This document shows positions 2,600-14,108 of a stretch of DNA of 17,809 bases, one piece after another (within the stretch, counting starts at the first letter, position 1; every line of letters begins with the position of its first letter). A program made the translations under genes and the position numbers. Below the pieces are notes generated by a model. It did no database searches and was not told the origin of the DNA. It saw only the letters and a list, made by a program, of their open reading frames with translations. The DNA comes from a virus (lineage: Duplodnaviria > Heunggongvirae > Uroviricota > Caudoviricetes > Crassvirales). Location: positions 64,001 to 81,809 of the IMG/VR virus record IMGVR_UViG_3300042448_001903. One strand, written 5' to 3'.

Positions 2600-3940
2600 G
2601 TGAGCATACCAAGTAAACAGATAGGCTGGAGCAATGAATCCAATCTCCTTTGGGGAATTTGGAATGATTTGAATAAAGTGAGCAAAGCTGTAAACTGTTG
2701 TACTAATAACAATAGCCCATCAAATCCTACAAATGTTGTACTACCGTCAGTAGCTTCAGATTCTTTTGGTAGACTTAGAGTGTCTGAACCTTTTACGCTT
2801 TTTGACTCTAGTCATAGATATGCAGATAATAATTTATGGTCTACACTAACTAATGTTGGTGGAACTGCAGTATTTAATCAAAATCAAGGATTAGTTGATT
2901 TAAATGTGACAGCAGCATTAAACTCTGAAGTGGTAAGAGAAACTATAAAAGTGTTTTCTTATCAACCAGGTAAGTCCCTTCTTGTGTTGAACACATTTGT
3001 AATGAGTCCAGCTAAAACTGGATTAAGACAACGCATTGGTTATTATGGAAATGATAATGGTTTTTATTTAGAACAAAATAATAGTTCTGTGTCTTTTGTA
3101 GAAAGAAGCATAGTGACTGGTTCTTTAGTTAACACCCCTATTTTACAGACTAATTGGAATGGAGATAAATTAAACGGTTCAGGACCTTCAGGATTAACAC
3201 TAGATCTAACTAAAGCTCAAATTCTTTGGATGGACGTTGAGTGGTTAGGTGTAGGATCTGTACGTATGGGATTTGTAATAAATGGGCAATTTATTGTTTG
3301 TCACACATTTAACCACGCAAACCTAATTGCTAGTACATATATTACAACTGCCTCACTACCATTACGTTATGAGATTAAAAATAATACAGAAACTTCAGGA
3401 GTGAGTACATTAAAACAGATTTGTTCTACGGTTATTTCTGAAGGTGGTTATGAGCTTGCAGGATTACAACAATCTGCTGGCACATCTATTACAGCCGCTA
3501 GAACTTTCGCTGTTGCTGGTACTTACTATCCAATTGTATCTGTTAAACTTAAAACTGCAAGACTTGATGCTATTGTTATTGTAACAGCTATTTCCCTTTT
3601 AGGGATTGGTAATGGTAAAAGTTATCAATGGAGAGTTGTTGCAAGTGGAACAACTACTGGTGGATCTTGGACAGATGCTGGTGCTAATTCTGCTGTACAA
3701 TATAATCTAACAGGCACTAGTGCAACAGGTGGAAGAATTTTAGCAAGTGGGTTTGTTAATTCCTCAAATCAAGGATCTCCATCAATAAATATATTAAAAG
3801 AAGCTTTATTTGCTAACCAACTAGAACGAAATGGATTAACAGGAACAGCTTATGAAATTATAATAGAAATGGCTGTAAGCACAGTTTCTGGTGGTGAGGG
3901 TGCATTTGCTTCTATAGACTGGGAAGAAGTTAGTAGATAG
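2600..3940 (+). CDS. putative virion fibre/decoration protein (short N-terminal module, linker, beta-rich lectin-like body)
   Basis: 446 aa, GTG start. Rich in G/S/T/N/V with a beta-strand pattern (FGRLRVS, YQPGKS, QRIGYY, WMDVEWLGVGSVRMG). The N-terminal SKQIGWSNESNLLW segment is separated from the body by a CCTNNNSPSNP linker. Function is inferred. Confidence 0.5.
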   Translation: MSIPSKQIGWSNESNLLWGIWNDLNKVSKAVNCCTNNNSPSNPTNVVLPSVASDSFGRLRVSEPFTLFDSSHRYADNNLWSTLTNVGGTAVFNQNQGLVDLNVTAALNSEVVRETIKVFSYQPGKSLLVLNTFVMSPAKTGLRQRIGYYGNDNGFYLEQNNSSVSFVERSIVTGSLVNTPILQTNWNGDKLNGSGPSGLTLDLTKAQILWMDVEWLGVGSVRMGFVINGQFIVCHTFNHANLIASTYITTASLPLRYEIKNNTETSGVSTLKQICSTVISEGGYELAGLQQSAGTSITAARTFAVAGTYYPIVSVKLKTARLDAIVIVTAISLLGIGNGKSYQWRVVASGTTTGGSWTDAGANSAVQYNLTGTSATGGRILASGFVNSSNQGSPSINILKEALFANQLERNGLTGTAYEIIIEMAVSTVSGGEGAFASIDWEEVSR

Positions 3941-3962: not shown

Positions 3963-4106
3963 ATGGCAATAATTTCTAAACAAATAGGACAGAGCGCAGA
4001 ATATAATCTTCTCTATGAAATTTTAAAACAAATGCAGAGATTGAATTATTCTATAGGACAGCTCTTACCCTCTACAACCACTACAACCACTACTTTAGCT
4101 CCTTAA
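3963..4106 (+). CDS. 47-aa micro-protein with a poly-Thr tail (MAIISKQIGQSAEYNLLYEILKQMQRLNYSIGQLLPSTTTTTTTLAP)
   Basis: Translated by hand; ATG after an A-rich leader; TAA at 4104-4106. Its N-terminus aligns with that of the 446-aa protein, which supports real coding status. Confidence 0.8.
   Translation: MAIISKQIGQSAEYNLLYEILKQMQRLNYSIGQLLPSTTTTTTTLAP
4068..4103 (+). repeat. coding low-complexity unit PS-T7-LAP
   Basis: ccc tct aca acc act aca acc act act tta gct cct; Thr codons are mixed. Confidence 0.85.
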
Positions 4107-4129
4107 TAAAAAAACCAATAACTACATAT

Positions 4130-5146
4130 ATGAAGGATCTCAGATTTATCTGTGTGCAACCTAGTGATAATTATTTTGTTTGGCAAGTACATTTATGGTT
4201 GGAAAGTCTTAGAAATATAGGACATTCAGATAAAGCCACGGTGCTTATTTTTAATCCTAAAAATAGATCTAAAAATACAAATTGGCAGAAGGTGATTGAT
4301 CTTTACCCAGAATCTGAGTTCGCTTTTTATGACGATCTACATAATATAAATAGTCTTATTAGAATTTATATTCCTATAATTAGGCCCTATTGCTTAATGA
4401 GACACTTTAACGAACATCCAGAGTTAAAAGAAAAAGCAATATTTTATTGTGATAGTGATGTTATTTTTACAGAGAATTTTAATATAGATGCTTACAAAGA
4501 GGGTGATATTTGTTATCTATCTAATACAAATAGCTACATAAATGCTTCATATTTTGATAGTAAGACAAAAGATGTTCTTCCAGATAAATTAGAAGAATAT
4601 AAAAAGAAGGACATTTTACAAGAAACTACGGTTTTAGCAGGTATTAATAGACAAATAGCAGAAGAAAATAATTCTCATTCTGGAGGAGCTCAATATTTTC
4701 TAAAGAATATAGATGGTAAATTCTGGGAAAAAGTCTTGTCAGATTGTATATCAATAAGACTTCATTTACAAAATGTAAACAAACAGTTTTTTGAGAGCGA
4801 ATCTAAAGGATTTCAAAGCTGGTGTGCAGATATGTGGAGTGTGTTATATAATCTTTGGTATAATAAATTAGAAACCAAGGTGATTGCAGAAATGGATTTT
4901 GCATGGGCTACAGATTCAATTCAAAAATTAGATAGAGTGGGTATTCTTCATAATGCAGGAATAGTGAGTGACAGAGGAAATGGTTATCCTGCTTTTTATA
5001 AAGGAAAATATCATACAGGAACGGATCCTTTAAAAGATCCTTATTTACAAGAAATACTTAATAGTGAAGAAAGTAAGAAATTTTGTACTCATTATTATTT
5101 AACAAAATTGTTCGATATTAAACAAAAATATAATATTAATTATTAA
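4130..5146 (+). CDS. GT-A fold glycosyltransferase resembling plant peptide O-glycosyltransferases (HPAT GT95 / SERGT1 GT96)
   Basis: Ordered motifs: YFVWQ (15-19), YIPIIRPY (80-87), FYCDSDVIF (DxD 108-110), SGGAQY, WCADMW (231-236), ILHNAG (274-277). GT-A status is well supported by the DxD context and late His. The GT95/96 link is recalled motif similarity only. Confidence 0.65.
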   Translation: MKDLRFICVQPSDNYFVWQVHLWLESLRNIGHSDKATVLIFNPKNRSKNTNWQKVIDLYPESEFAFYDDLHNINSLIRIYIPIIRPYCLMRHFNEHPELKEKAIFYCDSDVIFTENFNIDAYKEGDICYLSNTNSYINASYFDSKTKDVLPDKLEEYKKKDILQETTVLAGINRQIAEENNSHSGGAQYFLKNIDGKFWEKVLSDCISIRLHLQNVNKQFFESESKGFQSWCADMWSVLYNLWYNKLETKVIAEMDFAWATDSIQKLDRVGILHNAGIVSDRGNGYPAFYKGKYHTGTDPLKDPYLQEILNSEESKKFCTHYYLTKLFDIKQKYNINY

Positions 5147-5158
5147 AAAACGATTATT

Positions 5159-5362
5159 ATGAGTAATAAGAAAGACTTAAAAGCCTTTGTTCGCTTTGAT
5201 GGAAGCGGAAGAGTCGTTGCTGGTAGCTTAATTTTAAGAAGAAAAGCTCCTAAAGTGGGTAAATGGCATGAAATTCCTGCGTATGAATGTTGCAATCCAA
5301 CAACTACCACTACTACAACAGTTGCACCAACAACAACTACCACCACTACAGCACCTTTATAA
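5159..5362 (+). CDS. 67-aa protein: compact N-terminal module, CC, then a double poly-Thr tail; putative virion accessory protein
   Basis: ORF track. LKAFVRFDGSGRVVAGSLILRRKAPKVGKWHEIPAYECCN followed by PT7VAPT7APL. Confidence 0.75.
   Translation: MSNKKDLKAFVRFDGSGRVVAGSLILRRKAPKVGKWHEIPAYECCNPTTTTTTTVAPTTTTTTTAPL
5297..5359 (+). repeat. two tandem coding units P-T7-VAP / T7-APL
   Basis: cca aca act acc act act aca aca gtt gca cca aca aca act acc acc act aca gca cct tta. Confidence 0.85.
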
Positions 5363-5372
5363 AATTAGATAA

Positions 5373-5795
5373 ATGGCATTAAAATCATTATTTCCTGAAG
5401 ACATGATAAAATCAACTGGGGGAGAACTTTCCCCAGATGTTGTAGCTACAAAGCTTACATATTTTGAGCTTCAATTACACAATTTACATTGGGCCACAAG
5501 AAGTTATGCAGAACATCAAGCTCTTGGCGGTCTTTATGATAAAGTGTTTGATTTTAAAGATGAGATTGTAGAAAAGATTATGGGATATACAGGCACTAGA
5601 GCTAAGATAGGAACATGTGCTCCATTTAAAGACTATGGTGTAGGTGTTTCAGAGCAAGTGGTTAGTGATTTGATTAGTTTTGCTAAACAACTTGAAAACT
5701 ATGCATCAGCTAATAACATGCCTGATATTGAAAATATTGCTCAATCTTTAAGCGGAGAAGCAGCAAAAACTAAATATTTATTAACACTTAGTTAA
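5373..5795 (+). CDS. ferritin-like / Dps-like four-helix bundle protein
   Basis: LQLHNLHWAT..YAEHQALGGLYD....KDEIVEKIMG follows the Dps pattern H..HW.......H...D.....D.I.E. Confidence 0.75.
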   Translation: MALKSLFPEDMIKSTGGELSPDVVATKLTYFELQLHNLHWATRSYAEHQALGGLYDKVFDFKDEIVEKIMGYTGTRAKIGTCAPFKDYGVGVSEQVVSDLISFAKQLENYASANNMPDIENIAQSLSGEAAKTKYLLTLS

Positions 5796-8915: not shown

Positions 8916-9593
8916 TTATGATATTAACTGTTTGTAATAGTCTTCTTTAAAATGAGGGTTTAGTATTATCTCTCCCCTCTCTTTGGTTCTTATTAACTTA
9001 TCAGTGTTATTAAGAATTGTGTCAGAAGATTGTTTTCCCCATCCAGAAATATGATAAGTGTTCATTCCCCATCTATAAATCATAGTGGGGAATTTTAATG
9101 TAAATATTTTAGCATTATGATGGAAAGTTATATCAACATCCTCATCACCACTTTTATCTGGAAATTTTATTCCATCTAAATATTTCTTAGAGTAGACATT
9201 ACCATTATTTATGTTATCAGATAACTTTTCAAACTTATTGTTTACAAAAAAATAGTGGCTATCACTTCTGTAAATATCATAATCAGCATCAATATTAACT
9301 CCATTTTTTACAATACCTAGAGAATTGGGCCCTAAAAGATCATCATCATCTAACCTATAAATATAATTATTTTGACATTGTTTATATCCCCATTCCAGTT
9401 TTTTAGAAATAGAAGGAAATCTAAATTCCGTATTTATTATTTTTACATTAGGATGGTCGTATATATATTTTACATCAGGACTGTCATTAATTACAACCAT
9501 TTCATCTCCTTCTTGAAAATTCCGAAGAAAAGACTGTATAGCTTCCTCAAGTAGATGGTGCCTTTGGTATGTTATGGTTAGAACAGAGATCAT
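8916..9593 (-). CDS. glycosyltransferase family 2
   Basis: MISVLTITYQR..LLEEAIQS; VVINDS; YIYRLDDDD (DxD); GDED. Typical GT2 signature. Confidence 0.85.
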   Translation of the reverse strand: MISVLTITYQRHHLLEEAIQSFLRNFQEGDEMVVINDSPDVKYIYDHPNVKIINTEFRFPSISKKLEWGYKQCQNNYIYRLDDDDLLGPNSLGIVKNGVNIDADYDIYRSDSHYFFVNNKFEKLSDNINNGNVYSKKYLDGIKFPDKSGDEDVDITFHHNAKIFTLKFPTMIYRWGMNTYHISGWGKQSSDTILNNTDKLIRTKERGEIILNPHFKEDYYKQLIS

Positions 9594-11830: not shown

Positions 11831-12274
11831 TTAGTTACCAGTGCTACCAAATCCACTATCGTTTCTACTTGTTTCTGAAAGTTGTTCCACTTCTACAAAT
11901 TTAACATAAGGATGTGGGATCACCATTAGTTGTCCCACTCTCTCGCCAGGAGAATAGATATTACGTACACCACTTGCTAGAACACCATTCCCCACTAGTT
12001 TAAATCTAAACTCTAATTCTCCTCTATATCCAGAATCTATCACTCCTACAGAATTACATAATAATAATTCTTTTTTACTTATGCTGCTTCTTGGGAATAA
12101 AAGTCCTACAAATCCCTCTGGAATTTCAATAGCAATTCCTGTTTTGTATGATACATATTGATTATCATAATTCACTTCTGTTGCTGTAATATCCATTGCA
12201 GCATCCCCTTCTTTTGCATAAGAAGGAATTATTGCATTTTTATGCAATTTTTTAATCTTCACTTGTAGACTCAT
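11831..12274 (-). CDS. dut: trimeric dUTPase
   Basis: All five motifs are present: AAMDI, PRSS, GVIDSGYRGE, GQL, R..SGFGSTG. Confidence 0.96.
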   Translation of the reverse strand: MSLQVKIKKLHKNAIIPSYAKEGDAAMDITATEVNYDNQYVSYKTGIAIEIPEGFVGLLFPRSSISKKELLLCNSVGVIDSGYRGELEFRFKLVGNGVLASGVRNIYSPGERVGQLMVIPHPYVKFVEVEQLSETSRNDSGFGSTGN

Positions 12275-14108
12275 CTGTTTCTGTTTTAATTTCTGTGTTA
12301 TTAATTTTGTTAATAATTTGACTTTTTAGACTATTATAAAACTCTTCATTGTCTAACAACATTGCTTTAAATTCTTCAACATCATATTTTGTCTCTCCAA
12401 AGGTGATAGTCTTACCCCATTTCTTAATAATCTCAAAATCTGAGGCAAGTTCCATTATCTCTTTAAGCTTATCAATTCCCACACCATAGACTATCTCAAA
12501 TTGAGAAAGTCTATAAGGAGGAGACATTTTATTTTTTATAGCTTTTATTTTAGTTATATTACCATAATTAACATCTCCGTCTTTTGCAAGACTCTTACTC
12601 ACTTCTATTCTACAATCAGAATAAAATTTTAAAGCATGTCCTCCTTGTGTAGTGGTAGGATTACCAAACATAACACCTATTTTTTCTCTATACTGGGAAA
12701 CAACAATAACACAAACATTATGCTCAGAAAGAGCTGTTTTAAGTTTTGGATAGGCATTACTATTTAGTAAAGCTTTTTTACCAATAGAGCTATCTCCTAC
12801 ATCACCATCTAACACTTTTTTAGGAATTAGTGAGCTATCAGAGTCAATAATAACAAGATCAATTGTTCCTGAATTAATCATTTCCATAGCAATATTAAAT
12901 CCTTCTTCTCCGCATGATGGTTGAGCAATTAACATTTTTGTTGTATCTACACCAATTGCCTGGAAATATTTTTTATCAACAGCGTGTTCACCATCAATAT
13001 ATAAAGCCACTCCTCCTGCTTTCTGGCATTCAGCAACAACATGTCCACAGATTGTTGATTTACCTGAATTATGTACTACAATACCCTCAGCAATAAAATT
13101 ATTATAAGGAAAATAACATTTAATATCATATGTTTCCATGTTTCCTACAGATTTGATACTAACTATTTCATCTTCTACAACAACAAATCTTAAATTATTA
13201 TGATTATTTAAAGCATGTAATTTAGCATGTTCACTATTTTGTATTAATTGTAGATTAGAAATATCATTGTTTTTAGTATTTTCATCTATATGATGAATAT
13301 CAAATTCTTCAGGTATAGTCCAAAAATTATTAGGCAAACTAGTTATCCCACTATTTAACATTTCTTTATATTTATCATAAGTCATGTTATTCATATTAGC
13401 TTCAAAAACTAATCTATGGATTTTTTCTCTAAAATAATCAAACCCATTAATTTTGCGTGGGTTTCCTTTGTAATACCATTTCATTGTAGTTTCTTCATAT
13501 TTTGAACGTGTTCTTTTTTTAGAACATTTCCAAGAAGTATTATTGTGTACAAACACTATGTCTCCAACTTTTAATTTTTCAAGTGGAATATAACTCTCTC
13601 CAGAATAAAATTTATGATCTTTTGTAGCTTTAATTTTAAATCCTTTTTTAGTGATAACTTCAAAACACTCTTTTACTCCTGATTTTACTACATCAGCTAT
13701 TTGATTTCTAAACACTCTATCATGTTCATTGATAGAAGTTACATTAAATATTGTATTTTTTGTTTCTTCAGATCTATTATGAAATCTTTCATAAAGATTT
13801 TTAATTGTGCCACCTTTACAATCTTGTACAATTCCATCAGGTCTAACATTAATAAATTTAATATAAGTGTCTTCTGCTAGGCAACCTTCCCAGCCCATCA
13901 ATTCATATAGTTTACCCTTAACAAATCCTCCTACACCTAATGTAACATTATCAAATCCAATACTTCCTGTACTTATAACATCATAACTTTCTGTATTGTT
14001 ATTGTCTAATGTAAGCACTGTTCCAACACCATATGTCTTATTTAATTTGTCTAATGCTTCTTGAAATTTTCCTTTGTTTTCTGAAGCTGTTTCCTTTGAT
14101 TTTGCCAT
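12252..14108 (-). CDS. recA: RecA recombinase precursor containing a 272-aa intein (spliced length 346 aa)
   Basis: STGSIGFD, ELMGWEG|SGKST Walker A after splicing, IDGEHA, QPSCGEEG, REKIGVMFGNPTTTQGGHALKFY. Confidence 0.95.
   Translation of the reverse strand: MAKSKETASENKGKFQEALDKLNKTYGVGTVLTLDNNNTESYDVISTGSIGFDNVTLGVGGFVKGKLYELMGWEGCLAEDTYIKFINVRPDGIVQDCKGGTIKNLYERFHNRSEETKNTIFNVTSINEHDRVFRNQIADVVKSGVKECFEVITKKGFKIKATKDHKFYSGESYIPLEKLKVGDIVFVHNNTSWKCSKKRTRSKYEETTMKWYYKGNPRKINGFDYFREKIHRLVFEANMNNMTYDKYKEMLNSGITSLPNNFWTIPEEFDIHHIDENTKNNDISNLQLIQNSEHAKLHALNNHNNLRFVVVEDEIVSIKSVGNMETYDIKCYFPYNNFIAEGIVVHNSGKSTICGHVVAECQKAGGVALYIDGEHAVDKKYFQAIGVDTTKMLIAQPSCGEEGFNIAMEMINSGTIDLVIIDSDSSLIPKKVLDGDVGDSSIGKKALLNSNAYPKLKTALSEHNVCVIVVSQYREKIGVMFGNPTTTQGGHALKFYSDCRIEVSKSLAKDGDVNYGNITKIKAIKNKMSPPYRLSQFEIVYGVGIDKLKEIMELASDFEIIKKWGKTITFGETKYDVEEFKAMLLDNEEFYNSLKSQIINKINNTEIKTETDESTSED
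13068..13883 (-). mobile_element. intein with an internal HNH homing endonuclease, inserted in the RecA P-loop
   Basis: Starts CLAEDT (Cys76), block B TKDH, ends TYDI...NNFIAEGIVVHN, followed by Ser+1. Internal HRLVF...DIHHIDENTKNNDISNLQL...EHAKLH (about 13215-13301). Confidence 0.93.

Follow-up and report, generated by a model that had tools for sequence, protein, structure and literature searches.

Poly-threonine tags on virion proteins of a crAss-like phage and a soluble GT-A glycosyltransferase that probably glycosylates them

We describe a three-gene cassette in a stretch of DNA 17,809 nucleotides (nt) long, called the window here, that comprises bases 64001–81809 of an 81.8-kb crAss-like phage contig (IMG/VR record IMGVR_UViG_3300042448_001903; 32% GC); coordinates are those of the window unless marked otherwise. 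In this cassette the gene for a 338-amino-acid (aa) protein with a glycosyltransferase (GT) fold lies between two open reading frames (ORFs) whose small products carry runs of seven threonines (Thr7 or T7) near their C-termini. We think it probable (about 0.7), from what the genes and models tell us, that the soluble enzyme O-glycosylates such Thr tags on virion proteins, and because the pairing of enzyme and tag recurs in very different phages, the system most likely sugar-coats the virus particle. The cassette consists of:

3963–4106, + strand: 47-aa micro-protein, an ORF ending ...LLPS-T7-LAP
4130–5146, + strand: 338-aa putative GT-A glycosyltransferase, recognized from its ORF, its match to phrog_4417 and its predicted fold
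5159–5362, + strand: 67-aa micro-protein, an ORF ending ...CCNP-T7-VAP-T7-APL

Each detail of the cassette that an earlier note on this DNA had listed, namely three ORFs on the same strand separated by 23 nt (47-aa ORF to enzyme) and 12 nt (enzyme to 67-aa ORF), their Thr7 tails and a DSD motif in the enzyme, is present in the sequence. The same note saw no signal peptide in any of the three proteins, and by Kyte-Doolittle analysis (which is not a signal-peptide predictor) none of them has a hydrophobic N-terminus or a membrane segment, the maximum 15-residue means being 0.31, 1.31 and 0.68 for the 47-, 338- and 67-aa proteins, respectively.

The 338-aa protein matches phrog_4417, to which no function is assigned in that collection, over its full length (E 2.7e-51, residues 5–305), and its relatives form 1445 clusters when grouped at 90% identity and 751 when grouped at 50%. 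Searched against Pfam it finds no family at E ≤ 1, and a profile of the enzyme family compared with the sequences of solved structures gave nothing meaningful. We aligned the family widely (70 sequences, 28–82% identity) and also examined a second set of 17 closer sequences. Residues Y80, D108, D110, Y136, F257, H274, K291 and Y323 are invariant in the 70 sequences. In the 17 closer ones, conservation is complete or at least 90% at Y15, Q19, P82, R85, Q229, W231, C232, D234 and M235. The four ordered motifs by which the enzyme had been likened to plant glycosyltransferases, YFVWQ (15–19), YIPIIRPY (80–87), DSD (108–110) and WCADMW (231–236), are all there and fall on conserved columns of the family; the plant counterparts given in the earlier note are Y..WQ, Y...N[RK]P, a DxD-like motif and W..EMY. 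The metal- and nucleotide-binding signature expected of GT-A enzymes, a DxD motif after the fourth strand together with a C-terminal histidine, is represented by D108/D110 and H274.

An AlphaFold2 model of the 338-aa protein has a predicted local distance difference test (pLDDT) score of 97.4 and is a single Rossmann-like alpha/beta/alpha domain that superposes on solved GT-A enzymes. VIA-align against solved folds gave Z scores of 12–14.4 to ten GT-A enzymes over 209–254 residues, among them LgtC (14.4), glycogenin (14.2), Skp1 galactosyltransferase (14.0), UGGT (13.9), WbbM (13.6) and GlyE of Streptococcus pneumoniae (13.3), and a Foldseek search of the PDB gave 262 matches at E ≤ 0.001, of which the best 50, those listed, are all glycosyltransferases. 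With both methods the best solved folds are thus protein- or glycan-modifying retaining GT-A enzymes and not the DNA-base transferases whose appearance here would have spoken against a protein target. In the AlphaFold Swiss-Prot library the top match is Arabidopsis peptidyl-serine alpha-galactosyltransferase SGT1, and SGT1-type enzymes and hydroxyproline O-arabinosyltransferases (HPATs) fill nine of the first ten rows, with template-modelling (TM) scores by query of 0.54–0.62, compared with 0.42 for glycogenin; on both sides of the SGT1/HPAT comparison the structures are predicted models. HPAT-like proteins are likewise the commonest named matches in the AlphaFold cluster library after the enzyme family's own clusters. 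By sequence, the Pfam HPAT family (PF23452) is the sole family matched more than once by members of the enzyme family, and it is reached weakly by only 4 of the 70 relatives (best E 1.3e-4), which indicates distant kinship and not membership of GT95 or GT96. The resemblance to GT95/GT96 proposed in the earlier note therefore stands at the level of the fold, where SGT1 and the HPATs are the nearest predicted structures, and is faint at the level of sequence, where, with no Pfam match, family membership is not established. From the model and its conserved site, the 338-aa protein appears to be a metal-dependent, soluble glycosyltransferase of the GT-A type whose structural neighbours are the retaining GT8, GT95 and GT96 enzymes. 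Among the longer members of its family there are fusions to GT2, GT6, GT32-like, methyltransferase and radical-SAM/SPASM domains, as would fit an enzyme that starts or builds a decorated glycan. A predicted complex of the enzyme with the 67-aa protein scored 0.01, with a pLDDT of only 39 for the partner, values that speak neither for nor against binding.

Both micro-ORFs are real genes. The 47-aa protein consists of a helical N-terminal module (MAI.SKQIG.S....LL..I.KQ...L), one Thr7 tract (4074–4094) and LAP, and 35 distinct homologues of it are encoded directly upstream of the enzyme gene in related contigs, with the consensus MAIPS.QIGWS...NLLWQISKQLE.L followed by one or two Thr7-9 tracts. 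The 67-aa protein has a conserved N-terminal domain of about 47 aa (..LKAFVRFDGSGRVV.GSLILRRK.PKVGKW.EIPAYECC) and then two Thr7 tracts (5300–5320 and 5330–5350) with VAP between them; directly downstream of the enzyme gene we found 24 distinct homologues with one to four Thr tracts each, ahead of which the consensus reads ..LKAYVRFDG.GR.V..SLILRRK.PKVGKW.EI.AYECC. A crude pN/pS (nonsynonymous over synonymous change) of the N-terminal cores across relatives is about 0.11 for both families. In the Protein Atlas the 67-aa N-terminal domain found unnamed viral clusters only, at sub-threshold scores. An ORF on the opposite strand that would encode a poly-Val protein, also of 67 aa (5143–5346, − strand), is not a gene; it is the reverse complement of the Thr tracts.

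The N-terminal module of the 47-aa protein (3963–4060) recurs in its upstream neighbour, where it forms the first ~30–35 residues (2600–2705):

2600–3940, + strand: 446-aa virion structural protein (phrog_1645), whose gene adjoins the 47-aa gene

At the same position in relatives, the module also heads collagen-like (G-x-y repeat) proteins and other payloads of 120–630 aa. Because it is shared with a virion structural protein, the module looks like a reusable adaptor for virion docking or oligomerization. The head fibres of crAss001 are held in hexon pockets by their first 38–58 residues (PMC10172136), and by analogy the 47-aa protein may be a minimal capsid-anchored fibre in which an anchor carries a glycan tag. 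Searched against the PDB, the module's profile matched designed helical repeats and coiled coils only and missed the crAss001 head-fibre anchors, so the head-fibre comparison stays an analogy.

Thr tracts are a property of the late genes of the whole genome. Its 81.8 kb contain eight runs, each seven or eight Thr long, all in frame and on the + (late) strand, whereas 0.00018 runs of at least seven are expected from the genome Thr frequency of 6.8%, and 300 within-protein shuffles produced 0.03 on average and at most one. Ser/Thr tracts of at least seven residues likewise all lie in late + strand genes, and the same genome-wide scan found none in early-arm genes. The Thr codons of the runs are a mix of ACA, ACC and ACT, which indicates that selection acts on the peptide; a cause at the DNA level is ruled out, since A, C and T are freely exchanged at the third codon position and every run is in frame on the coding strand. 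The form of the tag typical of the lineage is seven Thr followed by x-A/T-P. Many of the lineage's tracts come after a cysteine (ECCN-, GSC-, FCVP-).

Besides the two micro-proteins, four other late proteins of this genome carry such sequences. A 383-aa protein encoded after the major head protein (genome 14089–15240) ends in a Ser/Thr tail, and all 59 distinct C-termini inspected from its 78 relatives have a Ser/Thr-rich tail, bipartite in most; in these sequences a Cys lies just before the tail or nearby. Its model (pLDDT 68) matches the crAss001 capsid chain 7qof_a over 333 residues (E 4.7e-9). That chain is the auxiliary capsid protein gp36, which lies in the outer capsid layer with nine copies per asymmetric unit (PMC10172136), and on this structural match the 383-aa protein is the counterpart of gp36. 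Two Thr7 linkers lie within a 2229-aa virion structural protein (phrog_37948), and two small late proteins of 131 and 108 aa have Thr-rich tails at their C-termini. A phmmer search of the PDB with the 383-, 2229- and 446-aa proteins gave no match.

The association of enzyme and Thr tract is tight among close relatives and phylogenetically deep. For the former we used 80 IMG/VR contigs whose enzyme is 61–68% identical to the 338-aa protein (the locus search was seeded with a narrower alignment, the wide enzyme alignment being too diverse as a seed), and counted Thr runs of at least six on the same strand within an adjacency band of −450 to +700 bp around the enzyme gene. Such a run is present in 66 of the 80, and of the 257 Thr runs in their 6-kb flanks 212 lie inside this narrow band; run length is seven in 173 and eight in 57 of the 257. 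The distant set comprised seven isolated phages whose enzyme is 25–33% identical, together with three metagenomic homologues picked regardless of context. Nine of these ten also have Thr-rich neighbours, so that the co-occurrence suspected from the single locus holds in both samples. The isolated phages are:

Enterococcus phiFL1A: both the major head and the major tail protein terminate in Thr tracts; directly after the tail gene comes the enzyme gene
Lactobacillus iLp84: the major head protein and the major tail protein each have a Thr tract at the end; five tracts also lie in a 125-aa protein encoded directly upstream of the enzyme gene
Lactococcus bIL285: a Thr tract ends the major tail protein
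Enterococcus nattely: a Thr tract ends the major tail protein; an unannotated tract-filled frame lies between the capsid and enzyme genes
Staphylococcus vB-SscS-F1: two small ORFs that precede the enzyme gene carry the tracts
Lactobacillus Iacchus (a large myophage): tracts in two ORFs upstream of the enzyme gene
Chryseobacterium MA9V-3: tracts inside two proteins upstream of the enzyme gene

In the six phages of Gram-positive hosts the tracts thus end major head or major tail proteins or fill small ORFs that touch the enzyme gene, the latter in iLp84, vB-SscS-F1, Iacchus and nattely. One metagenomic homologue follows a PKD-domain protein with a 28-residue Ser/Thr tract, and a second, a radical-SAM/SPASM fusion, follows two ORFs packed with T7–T15 tracts. 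The pattern spans hosts from Bacteroidota to Firmicutes. As controls we took five phages (Javan47, 315.6, SPP1, phiJL-1 and cIP1) whose tail-tube protein is 40–60% identical to that of phiFL1A; neither an enzyme homologue nor a Thr tract occurs anywhere in them, and their tail-tube proteins stop at the point where the phiFL1A Thr tail starts. The enzyme profile recovered the enzyme in all five positive records.

Three of these loci show further peculiarities. The bIL285 major head gene ends in TAA (record 21156–21194), and the same frame continues with N-D-K-T6-R-H-D and a stop; this K-Tn-RHD sequence is the tag that ends the bIL285 major tail protein, which suggests either stop-codon read-through that tags a fraction of the capsid subunits or a recent nonsense mutation. 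The tract-filled frame of nattely (L090:2720–2880) lies between the gene for capsid-like gp122 and the enzyme gene, and has four Thr6-7 tracts with VKP or VTP spacers and no obvious start codon. Its reading frame differs from that of the capsid-like gene, whose end it overlaps, and it may either extend the capsid protein through a programmed frameshift or be a small gene that annotation overlooked. In the contig with the radical-SAM/SPASM fusion (L179) the next gene encodes an APS kinase (L179:4671–5144), which hints at sulfated glycans.

A mechanism can be proposed from these observations. The enzyme would be made late in infection in the host cytoplasm, where, being soluble, it would bind a host nucleotide sugar through its DxD/His site. 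It would move the sugar to Thr hydroxyls of the extended T7 tags before virions assemble or as they do so, and, to judge from its structural neighbours, would probably retain the configuration. The proteins tagged in this phage would be the two micro-proteins, the C-terminus of the 383-aa auxiliary capsid protein, the two linkers of the 2229-aa protein and the two further small late proteins. Other enzymes may lengthen the glycan, perhaps the following:

8916–9593, − strand: 224-aa GT2-family glycosyltransferase (Pfam PF00535, E 3.5e-10), in the opposite (early/metabolic) arm

A GT2 gene lies within 6 kb of the enzyme gene in 10 of the 80 related loci, a count in which flank length limits detection, and the GT2 enzyme might extend the glycan or might be unrelated to the system. 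The outcome would be a virion with a mucin-like glycan coat, from which the phage might gain hydration, resistance to proteases or grazing, altered adsorption or shielding. For the earlier note's proposal that the T7 tails are glycosylated to give such a coat, the comparative and structural evidence above is supportive; the glycosylation itself, the sugar used and the effect on the virion are what we infer from it.

Could the enzyme act on something other than protein? Many phage glycosyltransferases modify DNA or host surface glycans (PMC12619734), and here too the target might be a modified DNA base, a glycan of the host envelope or some small molecule. In that case the Thr tracts would be plain flexible or extended linkers that share the late cassette by chance. 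The fold neighbours LgtC and WbbM, which build lipo-oligosaccharide and O-antigen, would suit such a role, as would one distant homologue, which is clustered with GT1/GT4, methyltransferase and ATP-grasp genes and has no Thr tract close by. We nevertheless consider it unlikely, because it leaves unexplained both the restriction of Thr tracts to enzyme carriers (eight of eight, versus none of five phages lacking the enzyme) and the position of the enzyme gene, wedged in head and tail morphogenesis modules directly after a tagged protein. The enzyme's lack of a membrane segment also argues against it, as does, more weakly in a contig estimated to be only 73% complete, our finding no thymidylate-synthase-type hydroxymethylase there.

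Two other alternatives accept that the tags are glycosylated. In one, the first sugar comes from a different enzyme of phage or host, for example the GT2 protein encoded 3.8 kb away, and the 338-aa enzyme adds to it. The frequent fusion of family members to other glycosyltransferase domains would agree with this, as would the presence among the enzyme's fold neighbours of the solved glycosyltransferases XXYLT1, Skp1 galactosyltransferase and GlyE, which extend a sugar already attached to protein. The closest fold neighbours, SGT1 and the HPATs, are on the other hand initiating enzymes that act directly on peptide, and in the stretches inspected beside the tagged proteins of the small siphophages phiFL1A, iLp84 and bIL285 the enzyme is the sole annotated glycosyltransferase, so that we regard a purely extending role as rather improbable. 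Still less do we favour the idea that the enzyme glycosylates the tags while the micro-proteins are no part of the virion and serve as cytoplasmic primers, chaperones or decoys, or are peptides released at lysis. Their very small size would allow it, and one family member is fused to radical-SAM/SPASM, a type often used in peptide maturation; the 47-aa module is, however, common to a virion structural protein and to collagen-like proteins at the same position in relatives, short N-terminal segments suffice to anchor the crAss001 head fibres to the capsid (above), and the other Thr-tagged proteins of the genome are clearly structural.

Several observations nonetheless weigh against our preferred interpretation, that the 338-aa enzyme O-glycosylates Thr tags on virion proteins. 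The protein matches no curated glycosyltransferase profile by sequence, including Pfam Glyco_transf_8. Fourteen of the 80 close relatives have no Thr run directly beside the enzyme gene, the third metagenomic homologue (L180) sits in a glycan-building gene cluster with no Thr tract within 4 kb, and the samples in which the association was counted are not phylogenetically independent. Since the contig is incomplete, other candidate acceptors or enzymes may be missing from our account of it. That the 47- and 67-aa proteins are virion components is a proposal, and the glycan, in this phage as in all carriers of the enzyme family, is predicted from genes and models.

Other genes in the window complete the picture of the locus:

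5373–5795, + strand: DUF5856/Dps-like gene ('starvation-inducible regulator' PHROG), directly after the cassette
1120–1764, + strand: homing-endonuclease-like gene (HNH; phrog_314), between the endolysin and late structural genes
12252–14108, − strand: RecA gene split by an intein that contains an HNH endonuclease domain (Pfam RecA, Intein_splicing, HNH_3)

The DUF5856/Dps-like gene is kept downstream of the enzyme gene in 75 of the 80 related contigs. A megablast of the whole window against phages gave no match.

How does this system compare with known ones? The plant and algal enzymes SGT1/SERGT1 (GT96) and HPAT1-3/RDN/PLENTY (GT95) are the best fold matches in both AlphaFold libraries (E down to 1.9e-9). 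They modify hydroxyl side chains in short repetitive low-complexity peptide motifs, as the phage enzyme would if our interpretation is correct. Their identity to it is only 11–15%, and they are Golgi proteins of the secretory pathway with a type II membrane anchor, whereas the phage enzyme is soluble with no hydrophobic segment; their acceptors are Ser-Hyp4 or Hyp, whereas the candidate acceptor in the phage is poly-Thr in a prokaryotic host. To our knowledge, the structures of the plant extensin-glycosylation enzymes are unsolved. Glycogenin, LgtC, Skp1 alpha-galactosyltransferase, GlyE and the UGGT catalytic domain share the fold (Z 13–14.4 over 216–247 residues) and the DxD motif, and several of them modify proteins or protein-linked glycans in the cytoplasm. 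They differ from the phage protein in sequence (identity 6–11%, and the phage protein does not match their Pfam family) and in that its model has extra helical insertions, with TM scores by query of only 0.45–0.48.

Among phages, the accessible parts of the literature that we found describe virion glycosylation by phage enzymes in only a few mycobacteriophages, where it shields particles from antibodies. In Che8, Corndog and Myrna, capsid and tail-tube proteins are glycosylated by enzymes that these mycobacteriophages themselves encode (Freeman et al. 2023, as cited in PMC12363180), and the glycans are C-terminal on these subunits (PMC12619734). In both those systems and the present one, phage-encoded cytoplasmic glycosyltransferases would modify capsid and tail-tube subunits, and methyltransferase and GT2 modules accompany them. 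However, gp110, the enzyme essential in Che8, is GT25-like and has no kinship with the present family (hhalign probability 0.1%), the Che8 enzymes are encoded far from the structural genes whereas the present family adjoins its proposed substrates, and no poly-Thr tag is described for the mycobacteriophage systems. A tblastn search with the 338-aa enzyme found no mycobacteriophage among 77 phage records, and our literature search found no description of poly-threonine tags, threonine-rich tails, HPAT-like enzymes or this enzyme family in phages. O-glycosylation of phage virions is thus known, and what would differ here is the enzyme family and the simple peptide tag.

A broader proposal can be made tentatively, and we hold it at somewhat less than even odds: that poly-threonine (T7-x-A-P) serves as a portable 'glycosylate me' tag, encoded in the gene itself, for which one phage enzyme family is the dedicated reader, that this pair has spread across crAss-like phages, siphophages and myophages of Gram-positive hosts and other large phages, that the micro-proteins are minimal capsid fibres (anchor plus tag) solely displaying glycan, and that the enzyme family is a prokaryotic or viral sister of the extensin-glycosylating GT95/GT96 enzymes of plants and algae. 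If phages do glycosylate these tags, the enzyme family involved would be far more widespread than the mycobacteriophage cases (751 clusters at 50% identity) and would link a phage enzyme to those of plant extensin glycosylation. Its carriers would include crAss-like phages and the enterococcal, lactobacillar, lactococcal and staphylococcal phages of food and therapy research. The simple, recognizable peptide tag would supply a sequence rule for predicting glycosylated virion proteins and might furnish a compact pair of enzyme and tag with which recombinant proteins could be O-glycosylated in the cytoplasm, and the system would account for unannotated genes wedged in the head and tail modules of these phages.

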